From Limisphaerales bacterium (lineage in GTDB: Bacteria; Verrucomicrobiota; Verrucomicrobiia; Limisphaerales; JAYPXF01), in assembly GCA_047608975.1 (NCBI GenBank), contig JBLFYM010000002.1:7189-71188 (forward strand): a DNA stretch of 64,000 bases, in the 5' to 3' direction. Of this stretch, positions 7,307 through 27,769 are shown one piece after another (within the stretch, counting starts at the first letter, position 1; the number at the start of each line of letters is the position of its first letter). The notes beneath the pieces are model-generated. The model was not told the DNA's origin. It saw only the letters and a program-made list of their open reading frames with translations, and made no database searches. The translations under genes and the position numbers were made by a program.

Positions 7307-8860
7307 CTACTTGGCGGGATCGGCCCAGCGTTTGGCCTGGGTCACCCGGTGATTCACGGTGGAGTCATTCTTGGTGGTGACGCCTCGGCGGCTCGCGCCT
7401 TTGGCGATCAATGATTCAAACTGCCGGGCCAGAGCTTGGACGCGTTTCGGTTGGGCTCCAGACAAATCGTTGGCTTCGGCAATGTCGTTGCGAAGATTAT
7501 AGAGTTCGACAACACGGGCTTTCCCGCGGGACTTGTTGCGATTGGGATTCGCGTTGCGGAACACGAGTTTCCAATCGCCGTTCCGGTAGGCGAATTCGCC
7601 GTGGTTGGAGTGGTTGACGGTGGCGGTGCGTGGCTGAGATTGTTTCTTCCCCAGCGCACTGCTCAGAAAACTGATACTGTCCTCCGCACCGTTCTTCGGC
7701 AGCTTGCCGTTCACCAGTTCGGCGCAGGTTGCAAACACATCGGTGAGACTGACAAGTTGATTGGTGCTGGTGTCGGGCGAGATCTGCTTGGGCCAACGAA
7801 TCACCAGTGGCACGCGATGGCCTCCCTCCCAAATGTCGCCTTTGTGTCCGCGATAGGGACCGCTGGGCAGGTGGTCGGCCTTGATCAGGTCGGGCCAGCC
7901 GGTGTAGTGTGAGTGACCGTTGTCGGCAGTAAATATGACGACGGTATTGTCGGCGATCCCCGCCTCATCGACGGCCTTGATGACCTGTCCGGCAGACCAA
8001 TCGGTTTCCATCACGAAATCGGCAATGGGAGCGATACCGCTTTTCCCTTTGAAACGCGTGGATGGGACCACCGGTTCGTGTGGGGAGGTCTGGGAAAAAT
8101 AGAGGAAGAAGGGTTTGTCCTGTTTCGCGAGCTGATGCACCTGCTCGACAGCGCGCCGGGTGATCTCCGGCATGATGTCCGCAAATTTCCATCCGGGTGC
8201 GATCGGCGCACCAACAAAGCCGCGCGGCATGACCACACCTTCGTTGGGATCGTAAACGTATTTCGCCGCGGGTTGGATGGCGATCCGATCATTCTCGATA
8301 TAGGTGAACGGCGGAAGATTGGGCAGATCGACTCCATAGAAGTAATCGAAGCCGCGAGCGATCGGACCTCCGGCAATTGGTTTCGTGAAATGCCACTCAA
8401 GATTCTTCTGACCGTTCGGAACTTCTGTCATCCGACTCTGCTGCGGTCCCGGCCATTCCCAGCCGAGATGCCATTTGCCGATGCACGAGGTGTGGTAACC
8501 GTGATCCCTAAGAAATCCGGGCAGCGTGGGTCGGTCTTCGGAGATGAGCGGCGGCTCGTACGCCGCAATTACCCATTCCTGCAGTCGCGTGCGCCAGGCA
8601 TAGCGACCGGTGAGCAATCCGTAACGGGTCGGCGAACAGACGGCGGACGGACTGTGCGCGTCGGTAAAACTCATCCCTTGCCGGACAAGCTTGTCGAGAT
8701 ACGGGGTCTTGATCTTGTTGTCGGGGTAGTGGGCCTGGATATCTCCAACGCCGAAGTCGTCCGCGAGAATGAGGATGATATTCGGTGGCTTGGCAGTTTC
8801 CACCGGTGGTGGGTCGAGGAGGAAGCCGGCGATTGTGAGCAGGGCGATGGTCAAGCGCAT
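7307..8860 (-). CDS. Formylglycine-dependent sulfatase (arylsulfatase A-like)
   Basis: PNIILILADDFG, CSPTRYGLLTGRY, GKWHLG, FTADNG, KGDIWEGGHRVP; signal peptide. Confidence 0.92.
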   Translation of the reverse strand: MRLTIALLTIAGFLLDPPPVETAKPPNIILILADDFGVGDIQAHYPDNKIKTPYLDKLVRQGMSFTDAHSPSAVCSPTRYGLLTGRYAWRTRLQEWVIAAYEPPLISEDRPTLPGFLRDHGYHTSCIGKWHLGWEWPGPQQSRMTEVPNGQKNLEWHFTKPIAGGPIARGFDYFYGVDLPNLPPFTYIENDRIAIQPAAKYVYDPNEGVVMPRGFVGAPIAPGWKFADIMPEITRRAVEQVHQLAKQDKPFFLYFSQTSPHEPVVPSTRFKGKSGIAPIADFVMETDWSAGQVIKAVDEAGIADNTVVIFTADNGHSHYTGWPDLIKADHLPSGPYRGHKGDIWEGGHRVPLVIRWPKQISPDTSTNQLVSLTDVFATCAELVNGKLPKNGAEDSISFLSSALGKKQSQPRTATVNHSNHGEFAYRNGDWKLVFRNANPNRNKSRGKARVVELYNLRNDIAEANDLSGAQPKRVQALARQFESLIAKGASRRGVTTKNDSTVNHRVTQAKRWADPAK

Positions 8861-14584: not shown

Positions 14585-15439
14585 ATGGAAAATCGAAAGC
14601 TCACACTTGGCCATTCGCCGGATCCGGATGATGCGTTCATGTTTTACGCGATGGCGAAGGATCTGATCCCGCAGCACGGCTACGAGTTCGAGCACACACT
14701 ACAGGACATCCAGACGCTGAATGAACGCGCCACGCGGGGTGAATTGGACATTTCGGCAATCAGTATTCATGCCTATCCGTATGTTGCGGACAAATACGCC
14801 CTGCTACCCAGCGGCGCGAGCATGGGCGATGGCTACGGACCTATGCTGGTCGCAAAAGAGAAGTTTTCACCGGCTGAAATCGCGAAGCGCAAGATTGCGG
14901 TGCCCGGGTTGATGACGAGCGCGTTTCTGGCGTTGCAGATGTTTTTGGATTGCAAGGCGGATCAGTTGGATTACGTGGTGGTGCCCTTCGATGAGATTTT
15001 CGATGTGGTCAACCGCGGGGATGCTGAAGTCGGGTTGATCATTCATGAAGGCCAGCTCACCTATGAGGATTCCGGCCTGAAACTCTGTGCGGACTTTGGT
15101 GCCTGGTGGAAGTCGGAGAACGACGGTCTGCCGTTGCCCTTGGGTGGAAATGTGATCAACAAACAGATTCCCGCGGATGAACGGAAGGTCATCTCGAAGA
15201 TTCTGGAAGCGAGCATTGGCTACAGTCTGGATCACCGGGAAGAGGCGGTGAAATACGCGTTGCAATTCGGTCGTGGTTTGGACGAGGGCTTGGCCGATCA
15301 GTTTGTCGGGATGTATGTGAACGATTGGACGCGTGATTATGGCGAACGGGGGAGAGAGGCCATCCGGCTATTTCTGAACCGAGGCGCGGAGCTGGGCTTG
15401 GTTCCGGCGATTGACGAACTGGAATTTGTGGAGCCCTGA
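14585..15439 (+). CDS. mqnD: 1,4-dihydroxy-6-naphthoate synthase (futalosine menaquinone pathway)
   Basis: LTLGHSPDPDDAFMFYA, ASMGDGYGP, GLIIHEGQLTY, LPLPLGGN, FVGMYVN. Confidence 0.92.
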   Translation: MENRKLTLGHSPDPDDAFMFYAMAKDLIPQHGYEFEHTLQDIQTLNERATRGELDISAISIHAYPYVADKYALLPSGASMGDGYGPMLVAKEKFSPAEIAKRKIAVPGLMTSAFLALQMFLDCKADQLDYVVVPFDEIFDVVNRGDAEVGLIIHEGQLTYEDSGLKLCADFGAWWKSENDGLPLPLGGNVINKQIPADERKVISKILEASIGYSLDHREEAVKYALQFGRGLDEGLADQFVGMYVNDWTRDYGERGREAIRLFLNRGAELGLVPAIDELEFVEP

Positions 15440-15515: not shown

Positions 15516-16058
15516 CTTCCCGCCATCAAGACGAAGTCGACAGAGGGAAAGGTAGTCTGGCTCACAGGCTTTTCTGCCGCCGGCAAAACGACCTTGGCAG
15601 TGGCCCTGCATGAACGACTCACCGCGAACGGCGTGGCAGCGAACCTGATCGACGGCGATATTGTACGCCAAGGACTCTGCCGGGATCTTGGATTCAGCCG
15701 CGAGGACCGCGCTGAGAACGTGCGGCGCGTGTCGGAGGTTGCCCGACTGATGGCTGATGCAGGTCTTTACTGCATCGTCGCGCTCGTGTCTCCCTATCAA
15801 GATGATCGGCTCGCCGCGGCCAAAATCGTCGGGGAGCCGCGATTCTACGAAATCTTCGTCGATGCCCCGCTGGACGTTTGTCGCAGCCGGGATCCTAAAG
15901 GTCTCTACAAGAAGGCGGATGCGGGCGGGTTGTCGGCCTTCACGGGCGTTTCCGACCCCTACGAACCGCCGCTCTCTCCCTTTCTTCATCTCCACACAGA
16001 TTCGCTGTCGGCAGAGGACTGCGTCGGGTTGCTGTTCGCCGCTGTCGTCAATTCGTGA
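15516..16058 (+). CDS. cysC: Adenylyl-sulfate (APS) kinase; start codon uncertain
   Basis: In-frame VVWLTGFSAAGKTTLA P-loop (15552-15599) upstream of the ORF-track start; DGDIVRQGL..DLGFSREDRAENVRR, RDPKGLYKKA, FTGVSDPYEPP. Confidence 0.88.
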   Translation, partial: LPAIKTKSTEGKVVWLTGFSAAGKTTLAVALHERLTANGVAANLIDGDIVRQGLCRDLGFSREDRAENVRRVSEVARLMADAGLYCIVALVSPYQDDRLAAAKIVGEPRFYEIFVDAPLDVCRSRDPKGLYKKADAGGLSAFTGVSDPYEPPLSPFLHLHTDSLSAEDCVGLLFAAVVNS

Positions 16059-17857
16059 AATCTGCATTGCAAAAAATTCGCACCATGCTGCAGATCGAGC
16101 GCACGTTGGGTCTGGTCTGGCGGGCGGGCCGATCGTGGGTTGTGGCGGGGCTGCTGCTCTCGGTTATTCTCGGGGTCATCCCCTTGGCCGCCCTCTGGCT
16201 GCACAAACTGATCATTGACACCGTCACCCGCGCGAATTTCGACACGGATGAAGCCGGGAGAGCGGTAGTCGGATTTGTCATCGTATTGGGGATCATTGAA
16301 TTGATCGCGTTGCTCTGCCGGCAGATCAGCAGCTATCTGACCGAGGAGCAGGGGCAGATCGTTCAGGACCACGTCGCCGACCTCGTTCACACGAAGTCAA
16401 TCGAAGTCGATCTGGCATTCTATGAGAACGCCGAATACCAGAACACCCTGCACCGTGCCCAGATACTCGCCCCCACTCGCGCGGCAAACTTTGTGCAGTT
16501 GCTCAGCCAGATCCTTCGCAACGGCCTTTGCCTCGTTGCGGTCTTTGGTTTCTTGGTGACGTTCCATTGGGGACTTGCGCTGATGCTTCTCCTGGCTGTG
16601 CTGCCCGGGCTCTTCGCCCGCCTACAGTCGGCCGACCGGATGTTCGAGTACCAGAAGGAGACCACTGAGCGCGAGCGTCTGGGCTGGTATTACCACTCCA
16701 TGAACACGCAGAACGCCAGCGCGAAGGAAGTCCGAATCTTTCAGCTAGGGGAGCTGTTCCGTCGCTGGTACCGGGATCTTCGCCGGCAGATTCGCGAGGG
16801 GCGTATGCGCCTCGCCCGTCGGCGGGTGATCATCGAATTCGGCGTCCAATGTGGTGCGACGCTCGCCCAATACGGGGGTTACCTTTATGTCGCGATCAGG
16901 ACAGTTCAGGGCGACTTTACACTCGGGGACCTGGTCATGTTCTACCAGGCTTTCCTGCGGGCGCAGACCTTCCTACAGCAGCTGTTGCAGGCCCTCTCCG
17001 GCCTCTACGAAAATAATCTTCTACTGGGGCAACTGTTCGCCTTTCTCGACACCACCAACGAGATCTCTTCACCCGCTGTACCGACCGCGTTGCCCAATCC
17101 AGAGGAAGCGCGGGTCGAATTCAACAACGTCCGCTTTGCCTATCCCGGCAGTCGGCGAGCGGTGCTGCACGACGTCAACCTCACGATCAATCCGGGCGAG
17201 CATATTGCCATTGTTGGCAAAAACGGATCAGGCAAGACGACTCTCGTAAAACTGCTGTGCCGGCTATACGACCCGACCGATGGCCAGATCACACTGGGCG
17301 GAAGCCCGCTGGCGGTATTCAATGTCGCCGACTACCGGCGGCAATTCAGCGTCCTCTTTCAGGACTATCTGCAGCATCCTCTGTCCGTCCGGCAGAACAT
17401 CTGGTTCGGGGACATTGTGAAAGCACCCGGATCCGGCCGGGTCGAAGAGGCGGCGAAGCTCACCGGTGCGGATGAATTCATCGCGGACCTGCCGAAGCAG
17501 TTTGAGTCCACGCTGGGTCGGCGCTTTCAGGAGGGCGAGGAACTCAGTCAGGGCGAATGGCAAAAGATTGCGCTCGCGCGCGCACTGCAGCGCGATACCG
17601 GCTTTGTGGTCCTCGACGAACCCACCAGTTCAATGGACCCGGAGGCCGAGTATCGGATTTTTCAGCAGTTCCATAAACTCACACGTGGCCGCACCGCGAT
17701 CCTCATCAGTCACCGCCTCAACACCGTGATGATGGCCGACCGCATCTACGTGGTGGATGAAGGCCGGATCATCGAAACCGGTTCCCATCAGGAGCTTCTC
17801 GCCAACGGCGGCCACTACGCCGCCCTCTTCGAAACTCAGGCCAGCAACTTCCGATGA
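16055..17857 (+). CDS. ABC exporter, fused permease/ATPase (lasso peptide D-type; no C39 peptidase domain)
   Basis: About 6 TM helices, Walker A GKNGSGKT, LSQGEWQKIALARA, VLDEPT, ISHR; GTG start overlaps the cysC stop. Confidence 0.9.
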   Translation: MKSALQKIRTMLQIERTLGLVWRAGRSWVVAGLLLSVILGVIPLAALWLHKLIIDTVTRANFDTDEAGRAVVGFVIVLGIIELIALLCRQISSYLTEEQGQIVQDHVADLVHTKSIEVDLAFYENAEYQNTLHRAQILAPTRAANFVQLLSQILRNGLCLVAVFGFLVTFHWGLALMLLLAVLPGLFARLQSADRMFEYQKETTERERLGWYYHSMNTQNASAKEVRIFQLGELFRRWYRDLRRQIREGRMRLARRRVIIEFGVQCGATLAQYGGYLYVAIRTVQGDFTLGDLVMFYQAFLRAQTFLQQLLQALSGLYENNLLLGQLFAFLDTTNEISSPAVPTALPNPEEARVEFNNVRFAYPGSRRAVLHDVNLTINPGEHIAIVGKNGSGKTTLVKLLCRLYDPTDGQITLGGSPLAVFNVADYRRQFSVLFQDYLQHPLSVRQNIWFGDIVKAPGSGRVEEAAKLTGADEFIADLPKQFESTLGRRFQEGEELSQGEWQKIALARALQRDTGFVVLDEPTSSMDPEAEYRIFQQFHKLTRGRTAILISHRLNTVMMADRIYVVDEGRIIETGSHQELLANGGHYAALFETQASNFR

Positions 17858-19005
17858 TTTTCGAAGACGATCCTGAACTGACATTGCTGGTCCGGCTGCT
17901 GCGAAATTCGATGGCCGGCAAAACAGCGGAGGATTCCTTGTGGTCTTCGGTATTCAGCAAATCCTATTTTTTGAAGCTGGTCCGGCGTCACCGGGTCGCG
18001 GCATTCCTCGCCAGCCGAGCCGACACGGCTTCACTGCCTTCCTCTACTCAGAACAGCTTGGCAGACATGAGTGCCGCGAACGCAGTCAAAGCCCTGTTAC
18101 GCACGCGGACGCTAATTGAACTCGGCAAGCGGCTGGAAAACGCGAACATCCCGTTCCTCAGCGTAAAAGGCCCGATGTTGGCGCAGCGGCTCTACGGCGA
18201 TGTGGGGGGGCGTCATGCTGGCGACCTTGATTTTCTCATCGACTCGGAACATGTCGCGGCAGCGGACGGATTGATGCGCGAGTCGGGCTGCCGGCGGAGT
18301 TCACCTAATTTCGATCTTAGCCCGCGCCAGTGGCGCGAGTACCAGATTATTCGACACGAGTTCCAGTATTTCAATCAAGAGGGTATCCGCATTGAATTCG
18401 GCTGGCGACTCGCAGGACTAACAGGGACGCAGTTTGACGAACTGTATGCGGCGCATCGCGAATCGCAGTTTGGCGGAATTTCCATTCCACGACTTCCGGC
18501 AACCACCGAACTGCTGCACCTCTTCGTGCATGGTGCTGGCCATGGTTGGTTTCGTCTCTTCTGGCTCCTCGACATCGCTCTCCTATTGCGACGCGATCAT
18601 GACTGGGAGGCGTTGATGCGCGAAGCCCGCCGAACACGAACCGAGCACTGCGTCTGGCAGGGGGCGCGACTGGCTGAAACGATTTTTGGAGTTGAGCTTC
18701 CAGCCAGCATTCGTCCTCCAGAGAATCGCCAAGGGGTAGTCGATTGGCTGGTCAATGACGCTATTCGCCAGCTGCGGGCGGACGAAAAACACCATTCCAC
18801 TCCGATCAGCTTGTTGCGCGATGCTCTGTATCTTCTGCGCTTGCGTCCCGATCGGACCGCGCGCGCCGCTCTCGTCCGCCCCCGGCTTTGCTCACCAGAA
18901 AACTGGCAGCGCTTCCCGCTGCCAGATCAATTTTTTTCCCTCTACTATCCCGCTGCGCCGTTCCTTTGGTCATGGCGACGTATTTGGCGAGCAGATGATC
19001 CCTAA
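17854..19005 (+). CDS. Nucleotidyltransferase family protein (NTP_transf_5-like, lasso-cluster type)
   Basis: VKGPMLAQRLYGDVGGRHAGDLDFLI, LHLFVHG..H.WFRLFWLLDI; ATGA overlap with the ABC gene. Confidence 0.85.
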   Translation: MIFEDDPELTLLVRLLRNSMAGKTAEDSLWSSVFSKSYFLKLVRRHRVAAFLASRADTASLPSSTQNSLADMSAANAVKALLRTRTLIELGKRLENANIPFLSVKGPMLAQRLYGDVGGRHAGDLDFLIDSEHVAAADGLMRESGCRRSSPNFDLSPRQWREYQIIRHEFQYFNQEGIRIEFGWRLAGLTGTQFDELYAAHRESQFGGISIPRLPATTELLHLFVHGAGHGWFRLFWLLDIALLLRRDHDWEALMREARRTRTEHCVWQGARLAETIFGVELPASIRPPENRQGVVDWLVNDAIRQLRADEKHHSTPISLLRDALYLLRLRPDRTARAALVRPRLCSPENWQRFPLPDQFFSLYYPAAPFLWSWRRIWRADDP

Positions 19006-20023
19006 GATGACACTTCGCAGGCGAATCGGCTTTCGCGCGGCAGCGGTATTGCTCCCGATCCTCGGGCTTACCCTGTTGGCTGAAGTGGTTCTGAAAACAT
19101 GGTTTCCAAATGATCGCGCCGATTCCGCGCAGGTGTATCGGTATGACGAAGTATTGGGCGTCTGTCCCAAGGTAAACTTGCGCTTTTCGGATTCTACCGA
19201 TCACTACCGGGAGATGTTTAGCAATGCGAAGGGGACAATGAATCTTCGTGAATCCTTCGCCGACTACGAGCATCTGGTATTTGCGATCGGGGACTCTTAC
19301 ACCCAAGGCACTGGGGTCGGCTTCGATACCTCGTATCCGTTCCAGTTGGACCTGAGGCTGAACCTCGACACCAACGGCTATCGCAAACATTACGGCGTGG
19401 TCAATCTCGGCTTGGCGGCCTATGGCACCCGCCAAGCCGTCCTGACGGCGAAGAGATTTGCCGGGGACATGGGCGATCCCGATTACCTGCTCTATTTAGC
19501 CGCTCCCAATGACGTGGCAGACGATCGTCTGTTCAGCAGCGGCTATCGCCATCGTCACCGCGTCGAAGGCAACCCAAACCACCTGATCCCGGCCAGTTGG
19601 GTGCATTGGATCTCGAAAACGGAACTGGGCTTCCGGTTGAAACGCGTCATCTTCACTCTGCGAATTCAGTCCGCGAAGGCACCCACCGGAAACGATCAAA
19701 CACCGGAGTTGGCCAGCCCAAGCTGGGCCGAACTACAGTCGGAACATTTGAGTGAACTGAAGCGTTTGGCAGGTGAACTGGACGCGATGCTGATTGTGGG
19801 CTTTGCTGCTACCGGATCGGACTACGATTCACTGCGCCGCTGGGCGCTTGAGGAAAATGTTCGGTTTGCTGATTGGCTGCCAAGAGTCGAATCGGTGCTG
19901 GCTGAAAATCCGGAACTGCCGATCCGCAACACCCATTCCGGCGGCCATTTTCGTCCCTGGGTTTACCGCCAGATGGCGGAGGCCTTCGCCCGTTCGATCG
20001 AGAGCCTTGGGTTGGAACCCTGA
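18995..20023 (+). CDS. Membrane-anchored SGNH/GDSL hydrolase/acyltransferase-like protein
   Basis: N-terminal TM anchor, IGDSYTQG, VNLGLAAYG, APND, C-terminal GGHF; probable start 18995 or 19007. Confidence 0.78.
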   Translation: MIPKMTLRRRIGFRAAAVLLPILGLTLLAEVVLKTWFPNDRADSAQVYRYDEVLGVCPKVNLRFSDSTDHYREMFSNAKGTMNLRESFADYEHLVFAIGDSYTQGTGVGFDTSYPFQLDLRLNLDTNGYRKHYGVVNLGLAAYGTRQAVLTAKRFAGDMGDPDYLLYLAAPNDVADDRLFSSGYRHRHRVEGNPNHLIPASWVHWISKTELGFRLKRVIFTLRIQSAKAPTGNDQTPELASPSWAELQSEHLSELKRLAGELDAMLIVGFAATGSDYDSLRRWALEENVRFADWLPRVESVLAENPELPIRNTHSGGHFRPWVYRQMAEAFARSIESLGLEP

Positions 20024-22021: not shown

Positions 22022-22528
22022 ATGAACCGAGCAGACGGTGTGATTGTCATTCTGCTGGTCTGGCAGTTGCTGATTCTGCTGGTCCAGTTCCCCCTCCCGC
22101 CGATCAGAAAACTGATCAATCGCTTCCCTCTGAATTTGTTTCCCCGGTGGTCGGTTTTTTTGGGACCGCAGACTCACCTGCGACTTTCTTATCGGGAGAA
22201 GAACACCACGGGACAGATTGGCGAATGGATACAAATCTCATCCTCGGCACCTCGCCATTGGTGGTCATTTTTCTGCAATCCCGCCTGGTATAGTGATTTT
22301 GGTTTCCGGTGTCTGATGCTTCAACTGTTGAGGAGGTATGAAGGCTACTCAAAATTCGACGGAGCGATTGACGAACTTATGTGGTTTCAGGCATTGAAGA
22401 ATTGTGTTGCTCAGCAAACGGATGGGATGCGGACCTCGGAGTTCCAGTTCAGGATTCATAGGGACTTCGGATATTTCGATGGACGGGAACCCATGGAAGC
22501 ATTTCGATCAGGATACCTGCGGCGATGA
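22022..22528 (+). CDS. Membrane-anchored protein resembling the linaridin LinL/CypL (SdpA-like) family
   Basis: N-terminal TM, FPRWSVF.P, L.YR....G..GEW, R.WW..NP, FQFRI, FRS near the C-terminus; matches my recollection of the LinL pattern, with diverged motifs. Confidence 0.55.
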   Translation: MNRADGVIVILLVWQLLILLVQFPLPPIRKLINRFPLNLFPRWSVFLGPQTHLRLSYREKNTTGQIGEWIQISSSAPRHWWSFFCNPAWYSDFGFRCLMLQLLRRYEGYSKFDGAIDELMWFQALKNCVAQQTDGMRTSEFQFRIHRDFGYFDGREPMEAFRSGYLRR

Positions 22529-23352
22529 TGGCCCAGATGCTGGAAGATCCATTCGTTTGCCTGGAGTGGATCACGCGTCTGCACGGCTTCGGGGTGGTGT
22601 TGATAACCTTCGAGCGCCTGGCCCACTGGCGGGAGTATGCAGAGGCAGGGCGACGGTCTTGGTCGGTGGCTTCTGCCGGGCGCAAGAGGCTTCCGAAGAT
22701 CCCCGGTGTGAGCTGGTTGTTCGGGTTCCCCATTTTCCCTTATCTGCTGCTGATCCGCACTTTGGCGGGAGCGACTTTGATGTTCACGGTCCATCGATCT
22801 CCAGCGAGTGTGATCGCGGTCGTGGTCATTTGCGTGACCATGATCGCCATGGATCTCAGGGAATCATGGTTTGTGGACAGCATATCCAGTCGGCTGCAGG
22901 CGATGATTTCCACGGTCCTGTGTTTGCAATTGCTGGCGGTGGATTCTCACCGGGTCGCGGTGGGAGTGGTGAGCTTCATCGCTGTGAACACCTCGCTCAG
23001 TTACCTGTTGTCAGCAATTAGCAAGTTGAGCGATGTGGATTGGCGCAACGGATCGAAGGTGTATCATGTCCTTCAGGGTCGGTTTCACGGTTCTGAAGGG
23101 CTTGCTGGTTATCTCAGTGGTCGAAGTTTTTTAACCCGTGTCATGACATGGGGAGTTTTGGGATTCGAGTTCGTATTTCCGCTGGTGCTGTTTCTTGATT
23201 GGCCCGCTTGTATGCCTCTCTTGGTTGGAGGACTGTCGTTCCATCTGATGAACAGATTGCTGCTGGGAATCCCCGGATTTACTTTGGTTTACCTTAGCGC
23301 GTATCCCGCGATCGTTTATGTCAGTCGCCTGCTCGCCTCAAGCTGGAGATGA
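22525..23352 (+). CDS. HTTM-like multi-pass membrane protein resembling linaridin LinG / CypH N-terminal domain (SdpB-like)
   Basis: ERL...G..SW, Y..SAISKL...WRNG, FEFVFP, FHLMN..LLG...F...YPAI.Y; about 7 TM helices; ATGA overlap with the previous gene. Confidence 0.65.
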   Translation: MMAQMLEDPFVCLEWITRLHGFGVVLITFERLAHWREYAEAGRRSWSVASAGRKRLPKIPGVSWLFGFPIFPYLLLIRTLAGATLMFTVHRSPASVIAVVVICVTMIAMDLRESWFVDSISSRLQAMISTVLCLQLLAVDSHRVAVGVVSFIAVNTSLSYLLSAISKLSDVDWRNGSKVYHVLQGRFHGSEGLAGYLSGRSFLTRVMTWGVLGFEFVFPLVLFLDWPACMPLLVGGLSFHLMNRLLLGIPGFTLVYLSAYPAIVYVSRLLASSWR

Positions 23353-23370
23353 ATACGGTTACCAGTGTAC

Positions 23371-23405
23371 AAAAAAAGGCGACTGCTTATTGCAGTCGCC
23401 CTTTT
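23371..23405. terminator. Bidirectional intrinsic terminator
   Basis: AAAAAAA-GGCGACTGC-TTATT-GCAGTCGCC-CTTTT between the convergent HTTM gene and the lasso precursor. Confidence 0.85.
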
Positions 23406-23422
23406 GAATTATTGGAAATTAA

Positions 23423-23563
23423 CTAGGAAGCGCTAGTATTTGCCGCACCGCCATCACCGCCTGCCGTCGCGTTCATCTGGGTGATCTCTGAAACAACAGC
23501 GGAGTTCCATTCAGGGTCGGTCCAAACTTTCTTTTCTGACGTATCCGTCTCAATTTCTTGCAT
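23423..23563 (-). CDS. Lasso peptide precursor (A), 46 aa: MQEIETDTSEKKVWTDPEWNSAVVSEITQ-MNATAGGDGGAANTSAS
   Basis: ATG at 23563; leader WxxP motif (WTDP), Thr at -2, Asp at core position 8, C-terminal Ser; directly downstream of the cyclase and followed by a terminator. Confidence 0.85.
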   Translation of the reverse strand: MQEIETDTSEKKVWTDPEWNSAVVSEITQMNATAGGDGGAANTSAS

Positions 23564-23601
23564 GCGCGCATTTTTAATCGCAAAACATGCTTCCGTCAAG
23601 C

Positions 23602-23633
23602 TTTTGTCGACGGAAGTTTTTGTCGACGGAAGT
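23602..23633. repeat. Perfect 16-bp tandem duplication upstream of the precursor
   Basis: TTTTGTCGACGGAAGT x2; an inverted partial copy CTTCCGTC lies at 23590-23597. Confidence 0.85.
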
Positions 23634-23673
23634 TTGTGCGGAGCGGTTCGTTCCCATATTCGGCCGATGCACT

Positions 23674-25593
23674 TCAAATCCCACCGTATTGTCGGAGGAA
23701 TGAAATCAGGTAGACCGCGCGCGGCACCATCTGAAGACCGGCGAGGTTTTCTCGATTACTGCCTCGATTTCCAGTCATTGAGAGGTTGGCAAGTTCCCTA
23801 AGCTTCCCGATATCGATAACGTCGTGAATCGGATCGGTCTTCGAAATTGCCGCCAATTCCGATCTTACCGAGGGGATCTGTTTGTTGTACTTAACATGGT
23901 AGTCGGGTGAGAAGGGCTCCTTGGTCGTCCGCTGACGAATTTTTTCAGGCAGAAGCCCTCTCATCGACTGCCGAAGCAGATTTCGAGAGTATCCGTTGTT
24001 GAGTTTGTGTTCGAGCGGAGCCTGTAAAGCAAAATCGAGAATGTTCTTTTCCCAAAAGGGGTAAGTAATCGAGACGGACTCATAGTTTACGAAGTGGTTT
24101 CGCGGGCGAGAGAATCGAAGTTTATTGACCGTATTTAAGACCGCTTGCCGGTGTCTGGTCTGCGGAACTTGATTGATTAATAATTCGCGCTGCATTTCTG
24201 CCAACGGTTTCTCTCCATGCCGCTGCACGAAATCATCTCGAAGAAGCCGAGCCGCAAACAGTGGGCTATGTCCCAGCCCGCGGGCAGAATCCAGCGACGC
24301 GGTGACGAAGCCCGGCAGCAGTGGGCGTATGATCCGGCGCTTGATCAACGACCAAACCGCGGTTGATTCCGTTTTTGAGAGGGATCTGAGCTCGCGAAAA
24401 AGCCTGCCCCATTTCCCCGTCAGGAACCAATCATAGAGCACCTCAGTGCCGTGTGTACTGGGACCGAACTCTGCATATGCCCCATCCAGTATGACGCGTG
24501 CGCCCAGATTTCGACTCTGATCGGCAAATTCTGAATAAAGATAGTGGCGGGTGGTGGACTGCGGTTCTTCGCTGCCCCAGACCATGCGATCGATGTTGTC
24601 GAAAGGCCCGCGCGCATCGGCAAACGCAAAGTGTTGCTCGATGTCCGGCCGGTTGGCGAACTCCCGGATGAATTCCATTTCGTCGACTGCCCCTGATCGA
24701 TCATCTGGACGCAGAGCCACCGAGAGTGTCTTGAGTTTGTCACCGGGGTTCTGCATTGCTGCCGCGCAGCCTACAATGGCTGACGAATCCAACCCTCCGC
24801 TGAGGAGTGCAACGCACGGTTCAGTTGCTCGCATGCATCGTTTTACCGACCGGAGGATTTTGTCCCGCATTTCCTCCATGCAGTCAGCAGCGTTCATGGG
24901 TGATCCGCTAGGTGCAGTGAAATCCCAATAAGTTCGAGTGTGCTGCGAGTTGGAACTTACCGTGAGAACGCTGGCTGCGGGCATAAAGAAGACGTCCTTG
25001 AAGTAACTATCAGCGCCTCGTTCAAGCTGAGAGCCAGGGCTGATCAATCCCGCAATCATGGAGAGATCCAGTTCAAGGGAAATCCCCGGTAGTGCCCGGA
25101 TGGCTTTCGCTTCGGAGCTGAAGGCGAATAGTCCGCCGCGGTTGATGAAATGAAAACTCCGGGTGGCCAAATGGTCAGTGACGCAGAACAACTTGCGCTG
25201 CTCGGAATCCCACACGACAACCGCGAACTCTCCTTCAAGATGTTCGGGGGTGCCTTCGTCCCATTTTTGCCAGGCTTGCAAAATAAACCAGGCGTCGGGC
25301 CGGCCCCGAAGGTCTGATGGTTCGAGGCAGAGTGCCTGCGCCAGTTCGGGGCGATTGTCGATGCGGGCATCGGCGACGAGTAGGAAGCGGCCGTCAACGG
25401 ACGCGAGGGGTTGACTCGAATCCAGATCTTCAGGTGTGACCCAAAGCGATGCACAGCCGATCCCAATAGGACCGTTAGTCAGGCAATTGCTGCCGTGAAT
25501 CGCCCGGTGCGCAAGGGCAGAGCGCATCGCTTCAAGAGCTTCCCGGTCGGCAGGTGCCCCCGAGGTGTTAAAAAATCCGAATATTGCGCTCAA
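23674..25593 (-). CDS. Lasso peptide cyclase (C; asparagine synthetase-like macrolactam synthetase)
   Basis: N-terminus MSAIFG lacks the Ntn Cys1; DARIDNR, LEGEFA, LLSGGLDSS PP-loop, YPF, R.LLR.SM.GLLP..IR.R..K; adjacent to PqqD-like and precursor genes. Confidence 0.9.
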   Translation of the reverse strand: MSAIFGFFNTSGAPADREALEAMRSALAHRAIHGSNCLTNGPIGIGCASLWVTPEDLDSSQPLASVDGRFLLVADARIDNRPELAQALCLEPSDLRGRPDAWFILQAWQKWDEGTPEHLEGEFAVVVWDSEQRKLFCVTDHLATRSFHFINRGGLFAFSSEAKAIRALPGISLELDLSMIAGLISPGSQLERGADSYFKDVFFMPAASVLTVSSNSQHTRTYWDFTAPSGSPMNAADCMEEMRDKILRSVKRCMRATEPCVALLSGGLDSSAIVGCAAAMQNPGDKLKTLSVALRPDDRSGAVDEMEFIREFANRPDIEQHFAFADARGPFDNIDRMVWGSEEPQSTTRHYLYSEFADQSRNLGARVILDGAYAEFGPSTHGTEVLYDWFLTGKWGRLFRELRSLSKTESTAVWSLIKRRIIRPLLPGFVTASLDSARGLGHSPLFAARLLRDDFVQRHGEKPLAEMQRELLINQVPQTRHRQAVLNTVNKLRFSRPRNHFVNYESVSITYPFWEKNILDFALQAPLEHKLNNGYSRNLLRQSMRGLLPEKIRQRTTKEPFSPDYHVKYNKQIPSVRSELAAISKTDPIHDVIDIGKLRELANLSMTGNRGSNRENLAGLQMVPRAVYLISFLRQYGGI

Positions 25594-25638: not shown

Positions 25639-25938
25639 TTATCTCGGTTCGTTCCGGACGATGATTCCCTCCGCCGCCCACTCCCCAAATATGCGGCGTA
25701 CAGATTCCAAACATTCCGCTGGCGTGATTTCGTATTCGGAAGCCAGTTGCCGGCTGATCTCCTCGGCCGAGCAAGGGTGTTCCAGTAGTTTCCAAATCGC
25801 TGCGGCAGTGCCGTTCAAGTCGTAGTAGTTACCTTTTTCGACACTCATCAGGGCCAGATCCCCCTCCCCCAAGCCTGCCGCAATGAGGTCTTTTCTTCCA
25901 TATTGGATGTCCTGTCCGACGCCGTCTTTCTCGTCCAT
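25639..25938 (-). CDS. RiPP recognition element, PqqD-like (lasso B1)
   Basis: LMSVEKGNYYDLNGTAAAIWKLLEHP....I...L..EYEI....C...V. Confidence 0.9.
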   Translation of the reverse strand: MDEKDGVGQDIQYGRKDLIAAGLGEGDLALMSVEKGNYYDLNGTAAAIWKLLEHPCSAEEISRQLASEYEITPAECLESVRRIFGEWAAEGIIVRNEPR

Positions 25939-26030: not shown

Positions 26031-26882
26031 TCAGATGTCGATTTCAGCAAGGTAACCGAACCGTGCCATCTCGTCCCGATTCCCTTCCACGATCGCGGCG
26101 ACCTGCTTGTGAGAGAGAAGTTTTTTCCACTGTCCCGTTTTGCCGGAACGAAAAAACGGTCTTCCAGAGGCCAGGGTCTGGTTGAATCCTTCATTGCGTT
26201 CCCGTGTGCGCAATTTATCGAAACTCGATTGCTCGATCGCCCATTGGAGACGCTTTTTGTCCTCTGGGAGGCCGATGAAACGAAGCACTTTTGAGAATTC
26301 TTTCTCTGGTCCGGACAGCATATCTTCATAGCGCAGAATCAGGACCGGGAATTCCGGCGAATCGACCCAGCTTCTGACGTGTGCGCCCCAACTGAGAAGC
26401 AGCTGGGGCAACTGCAGGGCGGTCCTGCGCCGCTGATCCGCCAGCGTGCGTTCCTCATCACCCATGCCCGAAATCGCCTCGTCGATCGAGGTCCCTAAGT
26501 GATGCGCCCATGAATGAGCCACGTCCAGCGGGTTTCGCAGCAGATAGATCGCCCCATGGGTGACGTTCGCCGGGATGAGGCGTTCACCGCCGGGGACGAG
26601 ATGATTCGCATCGTGAATCTTGAGGTAATGCGCATCCTGATTTCGCGTTCCAAGTTGGCGATACACCTTCGGTCGGAGATGCGCGATCTCATCCGGGTTC
26701 ATCTCGGAAGAGGATAGCCCAGTGACGTCATCGAAGATTCGCCGATAAGCCGCCATCGGCTCACCCAGCAAATCGTTGAGAGATTCAGGTGCTTCCCGGT
26801 AGTGCCGATGATAGGCGAGGAACGCGCGAAGCCACGTGTTTCCGGATTTTGGATACGAAGCCAACCACCAGATACCAGCCAT
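26031..26882 (-). CDS. PAPS-dependent sulfotransferase
   Basis: 5'-PSB motif LASYPKSGNTWLR, K.H, 3'-PB motif RNPLDVAHS, RYEDM, FFRSGKTGQWK. Confidence 0.92.
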   Translation of the reverse strand: MAGIWWLASYPKSGNTWLRAFLAYHRHYREAPESLNDLLGEPMAAYRRIFDDVTGLSSSEMNPDEIAHLRPKVYRQLGTRNQDAHYLKIHDANHLVPGGERLIPANVTHGAIYLLRNPLDVAHSWAHHLGTSIDEAISGMGDEERTLADQRRRTALQLPQLLLSWGAHVRSWVDSPEFPVLILRYEDMLSGPEKEFSKVLRFIGLPEDKKRLQWAIEQSSFDKLRTRERNEGFNQTLASGRPFFRSGKTGQWKKLLSHKQVAAIVEGNRDEMARFGYLAEIDI

Positions 26883-27769
26883 TACGCGTTGTCCCGTTCA
26901 ACCAATCGAACAATTTCATCCAATTGGAAGGGTTTGTAGGGGCGCGAAATCCGGCCGAACCTGACGTGTGGAAACAGTCCGGCGATTCCTCTGAAGCACG
27001 CTTCCTCGCATCCCATGGCTTCGGCGAATTGAAGGCGATAGATAAAATGAGGCAGTTCTCGGAAGGCAGTTCTCCCATCCATCTGGCATACGGTGACCTC
27101 GGGGACGTTGCCCGGTTGGAGAAAATACACCTGCCGGAGGGGGACGGATTCTCCGGACGCCGAGCCAATCGATACTCGATATTTCTCAACGGTCTGACGG
27201 ACACGATCGCTCTCCACTTTTTCCCTTTCGAGAGCCTCAAGGCTGTCGGGACGAAGATAAACGCTGGGATAGGTGGGACGGACTACCGGCCGGGTCTTGT
27301 CTGAATCGATCACAGTCTGATCATCGGCGAGTACTCGGTAGTCTCGCTGATGAAAGGCTGCTGCCAAGGTGGATTTCCCGGCGCCGCTGTGCCCGCAAAA
27401 AACTACTGCTCCCCGCTCCGTCGCGACTGCGCTCCCGTGCAATGCAAACAACCCCAACTGGTGGAACAGGGCTCCCATCACCGGTCTGAGAACGACAATG
27501 CGCAGGTCGTGGTCAGAAACACCCTCGTTCCGATCAATCGTCACCACCCCATCCGCGATCAAGATACGTGCCACCAGAGTGTTCAATTGAATGATCCCGG
27601 GCTTGCCCTCGTAGATGGGACCAGATCGAGTGGGGCGATCCAGTTTTTCCGGTACCGCGCCAAAGCGTATCAGCACGTCGGAAGTGCGAGAGCTGAGCGG
27701 GAGTTCCGGAAACTCCAGTTCCGATTCAATGACGATTTGATAGGCCTCGTAACGGTAATTTGCTGCCAT
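26882..27769 (-). CDS. HPr kinase-like lasso peptide kinase
   Basis: LHGSAV, Walker A GHSGAGKSTLA, LADD; N-terminal YEAY...IESE..FPEL as in lasso-associated kinases; TAATG coupling to the sulfotransferase. Confidence 0.85.
   Translation of the reverse strand: MAANYRYEAYQIVIESELEFPELPLSSRTSDVLIRFGAVPEKLDRPTRSGPIYEGKPGIIQLNTLVARILIADGVVTIDRNEGVSDHDLRIVVLRPVMGALFHQLGLFALHGSAVATERGAVVFCGHSGAGKSTLAAAFHQRDYRVLADDQTVIDSDKTRPVVRPTYPSVYLRPDSLEALEREKVESDRVRQTVEKYRVSIGSASGESVPLRQVYFLQPGNVPEVTVCQMDGRTAFRELPHFIYRLQFAEAMGCEEACFRGIAGLFPHVRFGRISRPYKPFQLDEIVRLVERDNA

Follow-up and report, generated by a model that had tools for sequence, protein, structure and literature searches.

In linaridins, a small protein with a single transmembrane (TM) helix, LinL, and a polytopic HTTM-type protein, LinG or the N-domain of LinH (CypL and the N-domain of CypH in cypemycin), are encoded by overlapping genes within clusters for ribosomally synthesized peptides that carry post-translational modifications (RiPPs). 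Epimerization and Thr dehydration activities were reportedly described by Xiao and co-workers in 2022 and by Xue and co-workers in 2023. Deleting cypL, cypH or legG/legE abolishes linaridin formation, according to the accessible part of a linaridin survey (Georgiou et al., preprint), and PxxxTP is the cleavage motif of linaridin precursors (PMC9927463). Here we describe a related gene pair in a 64,000-nucleotide stretch of the Limisphaerales bacterium assembly GCA_047608975.1 (contig JBLFYM010000002.1, positions 7,189 to 71,188; hereafter the window). Gene A (22022-22528, forward strand) encodes a 168-residue LinL-like protein and gene B (22525-23352, forward strand) a polytopic, LinG-like membrane protein of 275 residues that has the HTTM fold. 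Both are homologous over their full length to their linaridin counterparts, yet their RiPP cluster is that of a lasso peptide. We conclude that A-B is a LinE-free, LinL/LinG-like (DUF5819-like plus HTTM-like) superfamily module that has been recruited by a lasso cluster, and that this combination is new.

Other described systems resemble the pair or its cluster in part. The lanthipeptide-linaridin hybrids of Streptomyces atratus and its relatives provide a precedent for LinL and LinG serving another RiPP class, as far as the accessible part of the survey describes them (Georgiou et al., preprint); these hybrids keep LinE and sit in the linaridin clade, whereas the window combines the pair with lasso genes and lacks LinE. 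SdpA and SdpB of Bacillus subtilis, which act in maturation of the SDP toxin and, according to the accessible part of their description, are needed for the SDP peptide product, likewise form a two-gene module, to which B is weakly matched through SdpB. The kinase-type lasso peptides paeninodin and pseudomycoidin share with the window an HprK-like kinase, a nucleotidyltransferase, a sulfotransferase and a precursor with Ser as its last residue; the window differs from these clusters, as described in the accessible part of PMC8498205, by its LinL/LinG-like pair and by a core tail that has no bulky residue. Literature searches found no paper joining lasso peptides and HTTM, LinL and lasso peptides appeared together, among the matches listed, only in a microbiome review, and the accessible part of the linaridin survey makes no mention of lasso (Georgiou et al., preprint).

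Homology of A and B to linaridin proteins

A tblastn search of plasmids with B returned 18 records, 13 of them from Streptomyces, and the same search with A returned no match. Plasmid pGBA1 of Streptomyces sp. GBA 94-10 carries a canonical linaridin cluster, with two PxxxTP precursors, LinH, an overlapping 193-residue LinL, a methyltransferase (LinM) and an ATP-binding cassette (ABC) transporter. The S. atratus locus has the order LanB-LanC-LinG-LinE-LinL, an arrangement of LanB/LanC with LinE/G/L that the accessible part of the linaridin survey reports as a hybrid (Georgiou et al., preprint), and three further LinL genes come from S. flavofungini and S. californicus.

With BLASTP, A matches the LinL of pGBA1 over residues 16-165 (E = 9e-9) and a second LinL at E = 4e-4, end to end, while hhalign pairs an alignment of 12 lasso-type A proteins with one of five LinL sequences over 145 columns (97% probability, E = 1.2e-10). 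B matches LinG at E = 9e-21 and the N-domain of LinH at E = 5e-14. The protein-atlas lead for A was DUF5819-like (0.81). Searches by word matching that started from a single A or B sequence recovered near-identical copies only, whereas HMMER, run over 1.84 billion representatives, yielded 1905 relatives of B at E<=1e-3, nearly all of about 270 residues. Two of the 150 best of these are 630-residue fusions to an alpha/beta hydrolase, with a weak, sub-threshold HTTM match, that is, with the architecture of LinH.

The five LinL sequences in our alignment are invariant at QHPH, PNW.FFAP, YR, W and FQ; at these positions A reads FPRWSVFLGP, SYRE, GEW and FQF, with QFPLP in place of QHPH. In B, the GTDGSDQV of linaridin LinG/LinH reads VDSISSRL at the same position, and all family-invariant residues are retained. 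Among the 150 best relatives of B, only 65 have a D[GA][SAG]DQ motif. The motif readings of an earlier note on this DNA, and the divergences it pointed out (FFAP to VFLG; DGSDQ to DSISSR), are accurate when set against the five LinL and the LinG/LinH sequences.

The predicted structure of B, built from 102 sequences, has seven long helices and a predicted local distance difference test score (pLDDT) of 94.9. The 15 best Foldseek matches to this model are all vitamin K-dependent gamma-carboxylase (GGCX; TM-score 0.56-0.64), and VIA-align superposes B on GGCX residues 58-313 with Z 17.0 (root-mean-square deviation 3.8 Å over 235 residues), the next unrelated fold reaching Z 9.1. B therefore has the HTTM fold, though the Pfam HTTM model misses it. 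Unlike GGCX, with which it shares 17-18% identity, B lacks a lumenal domain, is accompanied by a separate LinL-like subunit and, as charge counts suggest, has the opposite orientation. Lys167 of B, found in 90% or more of the 102 sequences, lies near GGCX K217/K218, judged from the aligned ranges alone; K218 is the catalytic lysine of GGCX. A profile of the B family had no match at E<=1 among Protein Data Bank (PDB) sequences. A, which has a single hydrophobic segment at its N-terminus, is predicted to form one TM helix (about residues 3-22) and a small alpha/beta domain placed in the cytoplasm (pLDDT 70).

The likeness to LinL and to the HTTM part of LinG, which the earlier note had pointed out, is thus borne out by BLASTP, hhalign and the GGCX superposition. 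The structural and profile comparisons it proposed came out unevenly: B has the HTTM/GGCX fold and A matches a LinL profile, but the likeness to SdpA/SdpB stays below cut-off and A has no structural neighbor. The C-terminal match of B to the SdpB family (TIGR04033) scores 30.1 bits against a cut-off of 178.4, A has no SdpA match at E<=1, and no SdpC-like secreted precursor was seen.

The pair lies in a complete lasso-peptide cluster

The list of open reading frames (ORFs) and their Pfam and NCBIfam matches show that the window contains a complete lasso-peptide cluster. The precursor (23423-23563, reverse strand; 46 residues with the start placed at an internal ATG) has a W-x-x-P leader and a proposed 17-residue core, MNATAGGDGGAANTSAS, with Thr at position -2, Asp8 and a C-terminal Ser. 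On the same strand, at higher coordinates, lie the lasso cyclase C (23674-25593; NF033535, 1.9e-105; Asn_synthase plus GATase_7) and B1, a PqqD-like RiPP recognition element (25639-25938; PF05402, 4.8e-18; NF033536, 6.7e-14), and the B2 leader peptidase lies on the forward strand (28064-28519; NF033537, 82.8 bits, cut-off 33). An acidic residue at core position 7-9 together with a cyclase, B1 and B2 defines a lasso cluster, and an HprK-like kinase together with a C-terminal Ser assigns it to the kinase subtype. This HprK-related protein (26882-27769, reverse strand), which may phosphorylate the C-terminal Ser, scores poorly with curated models (TIGR04352, 6.7e-10, sub-threshold) but is conserved between loci; a kinase role for C-terminal Ser is taken from paeninodin, as given in the accessible part of PMC8498205. 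A sulfotransferase (26031-26882, reverse strand; PF00685, 7.7e-28) adjoins the kinase gene, and upstream on the forward strand are an APS kinase (15594-16058; PF01583, 1.2e-49) for supply of 3'-phosphoadenosine-5'-phosphosulfate to the sulfotransferase, the ABC exporter D (16055-17857; ABC_tran plus ABC_membrane) and an NTP_transf_5 nucleotidyltransferase (NTP5; 17854-19005; PF14907, 6.4e-51).

A and B share a 4-nucleotide ATGA overlap at 22525-22528 and, as the gene that precedes A is read from the opposite strand, form a two-gene operon. This operon runs toward the precursor gene, and the stop codons of B (23352) and of the precursor (23423) flank a hairpin at 23378-23400 with nine pairs, seven of them G-C. 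On the forward strand an A-run precedes the hairpin and a T-run follows it, so that it could act as a terminator for both strands; terminator-like sites in this region number 8, against 2.8 +/- 1.5 in shuffled sequences. The arrangement described in the earlier note, two translationally coupled membrane genes that converge on the precursor and share its terminator, agrees with the ATGA overlap and with this hairpin.

The cluster is not a linaridin cluster. No precursor with the PxxxTP motif and Thr-rich linear core of linaridins was found in the window, where the only precursor is of lasso type, and in tblastn searches of the window with two LinE proteins and the C-domain of LinH the best match, at 61 kb, covers just 55 residues (E = 0.003). 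The absence of a LinE and of a separate linaridin precursor, both stated in the earlier note, therefore holds near the cluster. Unlike linaridin clusters, the window has neither a LinE domain nor a LinE gene, its order is A then B rather than G(-E)-L, its copies have lost DGSDQ, QHPH and FFAP, its B falls in a separate clade, and its host, unlike those of the linaridins seen here, is not an actinomycetote.

Lasso-linked pairs in other loci

The earlier note had proposed a search for co-occurrence of the pair with lasso genes. The pair lies amid lasso genes in six of the seven loci that contain it: the window, G682 (locus L037), G336 (L007), L041, L042 and L044; the seventh, L043, is a 3.2-kb metagenome contig with the pair only. 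L041-L044 were found with lasso-type A-family alignment queries and are not an unbiased sample. The pair-bearing lasso loci come from several marine and soil bacteria, and the pair proteins share 23-30% identity with those of the window, which argues against recent copying. A locus search of genome and metagenome contigs with a 4-sequence B alignment gave no confirmed locus, and full-length B matches among 401 genomes of the class were limited to G000, G682 and G465.

In G682, from another family of the same order, a kinase, sulfotransferase, B1, B2, cyclase, precursor and methyltransferase are accompanied on the opposite strand by NTP5, A and B, in overlapping genes in which NTP5 overlaps the start of A. 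G336, from another family of the same class, has two tandem A-B pairs between the cyclase and two PqqD genes, together with B2, a kinase, a sulfotransferase and two JmjC-like genes. The L042 metagenome contig similarly places two pairs between its cyclase and two PqqD genes and also encodes a kinase, a sulfotransferase and a precursor. L044, another metagenome contig, holds a cyclase, a precursor, A and B, and in both L042 and L044 the pair is on the same strand as the core genes. L041, a contig from a metagenome-assembled genome titled 'uncultured Opitutus sp.', has two B, one A, two PqqD genes, B2, NTP5 and an ABC gene, and ends before any cyclase. L037, L007 and L042 retain both the sulfotransferase, at 41-42% identity, and the HprK-related kinase, and L037 also has an APS kinase homologue.

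The five associated precursors (that of the window and those of four other pair loci) share the W-x-x-P leader, an aligned Asp/Glu and the C-terminal Ser. The window core has no bulky tail residue fit to serve as a steric plug, and the G682 core (SNAASGADANDTMNTNNSLS) is similar. What holds the lasso fold may be the modification of the C-terminal Ser or the A-B step.

Some of these loci show further peculiarities. Positions 6596-16067 of L007 contain duplicates of the A-B pair, of PqqD and of a JmjC-type cupin gene, and the longer L007 precursor has an SPISPS C-terminus and two Cys. In G682 a PRMT-like methyltransferase gene (L037 8658-9809, forward strand), absent from the window, lies between the precursor and A-B. 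The pair of G465 (L038 10023-11587, reverse strand) is of the canonical GGSDSM type; its B match crosses one in-frame TAG, and the gene may be broken or misjoined. Finally, a plasmid of the archaeon Haloplanus sp. GDY1 (L010, 6221-15650) carries an overlapping A-like/B-like pair (7421-8017 and 8010-8831) that adjoins a sugar-transfer ATP-grasp gene and a YcaO/SagB cluster of the thiazole/oxazole-modified microcin (TOMM) type, possibly a third RiPP class that uses the module.

Predicted topology and complex of A and B

Counts of Lys and Arg place the alpha/beta domain of A and the odd-numbered loops of B in the cytoplasm by the positive-inside rule. Averaged over 102 B sequences, loops 1 and 5 contain 6.1 and 4.4 such residues and the other loops 0.1-0.3; of 11 scored A sequences, ten have none before the TM segment and one has a single residue, and all 11 have 2-5 within 15 residues after it (0 and 4 in the window). 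The odd-numbered B loops hold K167, W173, R174 and the DGSDQ position, so that the conserved motifs of A and B would be on the cytoplasmic face, where the lasso enzymes also work.

Modeling supports binding of A and B as a complex. The predicted interface score (ipSAE) was 0.83, 0.83 and 0.82 over three runs, with at least 91% contact agreement and a partner pLDDT of 76, and the best of three controls scored 0.00; in a benchmark, the ipSAE mark was attained by 58 of 80 solved complexes and by 2 of 110 mismatched pairs. In the model the helix of A packs on TM4/TM5 of B, and the conserved segments 41-53 and 85-98 of A lie on the loops of B, opposite residues 30-53, 114-120 and 169-198. No similar solved complex was found with the B-family profile against PDB sequences or with the A model in Foldseek.

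RNA contigs and neighboring features

Six metatranscriptome runs contain parts of the stretch. In the four runs that were aligned, contigs cover B (22649-23353, word depth 22-47) in all four and A in three, one contig bridges the A/B junction, reaching 34 letters into the B side, and the contigs over B stop at 23326-23353. The interval 23388-23511, with the precursor core inside it, is outside all RNA contigs, which cannot show absence of transcription.

Between the cyclase and precursor genes there is a 16-base tandem duplication at 23596-23640, overlapped by a promoter-like site on the reverse strand (23599-23570). A contig from the RNA library of run X19 contains a single copy, with 16 bases omitted at 23602; strains therefore differ at this site. 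Just past B2, two adjoining response-regulator-like ORFs (28763-29833, reverse strand) are possible cluster regulators. Between the nucleotidyltransferase gene and the PSCyt1 gene, an ORF at 18755-20023 (forward strand) has an N-terminal hydrophobic segment and weakly matches GDSL/SGNH hydrolases (E = 1.8e-4, sub-threshold); it was not found in the related loci. A menaquinone-biosynthesis gene (14585-15439, forward strand; VitK2_biosynth, 7e-71) lies directly upstream of the lasso cluster. The vitamin K link of HTTM had suggested it as part of the cluster; it was dropped as a chance neighbor because it is absent from the six related loci.

Discussion

The homology of A and B to LinL and LinG, the fold of B, the operon structure and the conserved embedding of the pair in lasso clusters are what the analysis shows. 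From these we arrive, with confidence that is about evenly balanced, at the reading that A-B is a membrane-bound accessory tailoring complex that acts on the lasso precursor in a pathway of the kinase/sulfotransferase type. A and B would together form a two-subunit enzyme complex at the inner face of the cytoplasmic membrane, with the single N-terminal helix of A serving as an anchor that packs on TM4/TM5 of B and the cytoplasmic domain of A capping the cytoplasmic loops of B. Invariant residues of both proteins (Y160, K167, W173, R174 and H240 of B; W43, R58, W69 and P87 of A) would meet at this cap, where the linear precursor or the leader-bound core could be modified before or around cyclization and export. 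The lasso core would then be the substrate. The chemistry may consist of removal of a peptide C-alpha proton, giving D-residues or beta-elimination at Ser/Thr, and by analogy with the linaridins epimerization or dehydration is the most likely candidate. Both reactions start with C-alpha deprotonation and so, we speculate, fit a GGCX-like fold that generates a base.

Several observations weigh against this reading, and we collect them here. As to recognition of the families, neither A nor B reaches a curated Pfam or NCBIfam threshold. B has no match to Pfam HTTM (PF05090) at E<=1, and a search of the window's own genome with that family misses it; LinG of S. atratus passes the same model (29.3 vs 27.7 bits). 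A has no Pfam or NCBIfam match at E<=1, SdpA models included, nor one to DUF5819 (PF19136), against which the LinL protein P0152 scores 17 bits, with a gathering threshold of 27.1. Foldseek with the A model gave no usable structural neighbor (best E 0.43, TM-score below 0.21), a result that does not show a new fold because the pLDDT of the model is only 70.

As to descent, DGSDQ is lost in the window B and its closest clade, QHPH and FFAP, present in all five LinL, are not retained in lasso-type A proteins, and all lasso-linked copies are without these three motifs. In a quick IQ-TREE run, which left 74 of 153 branches unresolved, the seven rows from linaridins cluster together (support 93) with no lasso-linked row inside; the B proteins linked to lasso genes are spread over two or three clades outside this group. 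The window B groups with P0003-P0006 and P0009 (support 100), and this clade is nested in a 24-row clade (support 95) with the G682 B close by; the B set of G336, L041, L042 and L044 is elsewhere in the tree (support 100). LinG is accompanied by LinE in every linaridin locus seen, and the LinE queries used for the window found no LinE in L037, L007, L041, L042 or L044 either.

As to the link with lasso peptides, the G336-type loci have cores that contain Cys and are rich in Gly, Pro and Asn, not in Ala, Thr and Ser. The pair is also optional: some 12 genomes of the class have a cyclase match at least as good as that of the window and only 2 of these have a full-length B, a comparison that assumes the same 401 genomes in both searches and a converse count that is rough, the cyclase family search having matched 240 of the 401 with ordinary asparagine synthases included. 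For the A/B-like pair of G465, tblastn found no lasso gene within 10 kb, and no other RiPP gene could be recognized in the surrounding ORFs. The RNA evidence consists of assembled contigs only, with DNA carry-over possible, and can neither prove transcription nor rank the genes.

One alternative is that A-B is a module for export, docking or self-protection, which holds the peptide, hands it over or shields the producer with no chemical change. Both proteins are in the membrane, the nearest named family, SdpB, is labeled 'export_SdpB' in NCBIfam, and a tblastn search within 10 kb detected no ABC exporter in G682 or in L042, so that some clusters are without an obvious exporter. However, the window already encodes an ABC exporter, the fold of B is that of an enzyme, GGCX, and not of a known transporter, and the invariant K167, H240, Y160 and R174 are polar residues at the predicted A-B interface. 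The linaridin homologues are, moreover, required for product formation itself, according to the accessible part of the survey (Georgiou et al., preprint). We consider this alternative unlikely.

A second alternative is that A-B acts on the modified C-terminal Ser or on a partner other than a peptide, for example by eliminating or transferring the phosphate, sugar or sulfate added by the kinase, nucleotidyltransferase and sulfotransferase, or by attaching a lipid- or quinone-derived group. The trait common to all five precursors is indeed the C-terminal Ser and not a Thr-rich core, the HprK-like kinase and the sulfotransferase accompany the pair in four of the seven loci, G682 shows translational coupling between the pair and the nucleotidyltransferase gene, and GGCX binds a lipid quinone, as the titles of structure entries state. 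Nevertheless, the LinL/LinG family offers no precedent for such a role, and kinase-type lasso clusters of Firmicutes are described without such a pair in the accessible part of PMC8498205; this explanation, too, we judge doubtful. That a general DUF5819-like/HTTM-like pair lies beside the lasso genes by chance is very improbable, since a large B family of 1905 representatives and a related G465 pair among glycosidase-, esterase- and oxidoreductase-like genes are outweighed by lasso embedding in six of seven loci at 23-30% identity, by the shared strand with core genes in L042 and L044, and by the coupling to NTP5 in G682.

Returning to a tailoring complex that acts on the lasso precursor, a broader version can be put forward tentatively and with low expectation: a portable, class-independent RiPP tailoring machine that, in the manner of GGCX, would draw on a membrane cofactor to make a strong base for abstracting C-alpha protons from the peptide, giving D- or dehydro-residues in the lasso peptide. 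If true, lasso biosynthesis would gain its first epimerase or dehydratase bound to the membrane, and linaridin chemistry a form that proceeds without LinE.

Among the class-defining enzymes of the major RiPP families, LinL and LinG/LinH are understood least, and they have been tied almost exclusively to actinobacterial linaridins. The presence of a LinE-free version in the lasso clusters of another phylum, with relatives beside lanthipeptide and TOMM clusters, suggests a general membrane-bound peptide-modifying module. For genome mining, the sub-threshold scores of both proteins in Pfam and NCBIfam mean that custom profiles, made from the present alignments, are required to detect such clusters. 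With two proteins and a 17-residue core, the window offers a simpler system in which to study how the module functions and which part of linaridin chemistry requires LinE and, as its core is without a plug residue, tailoring may explain how the lasso fold is kept.

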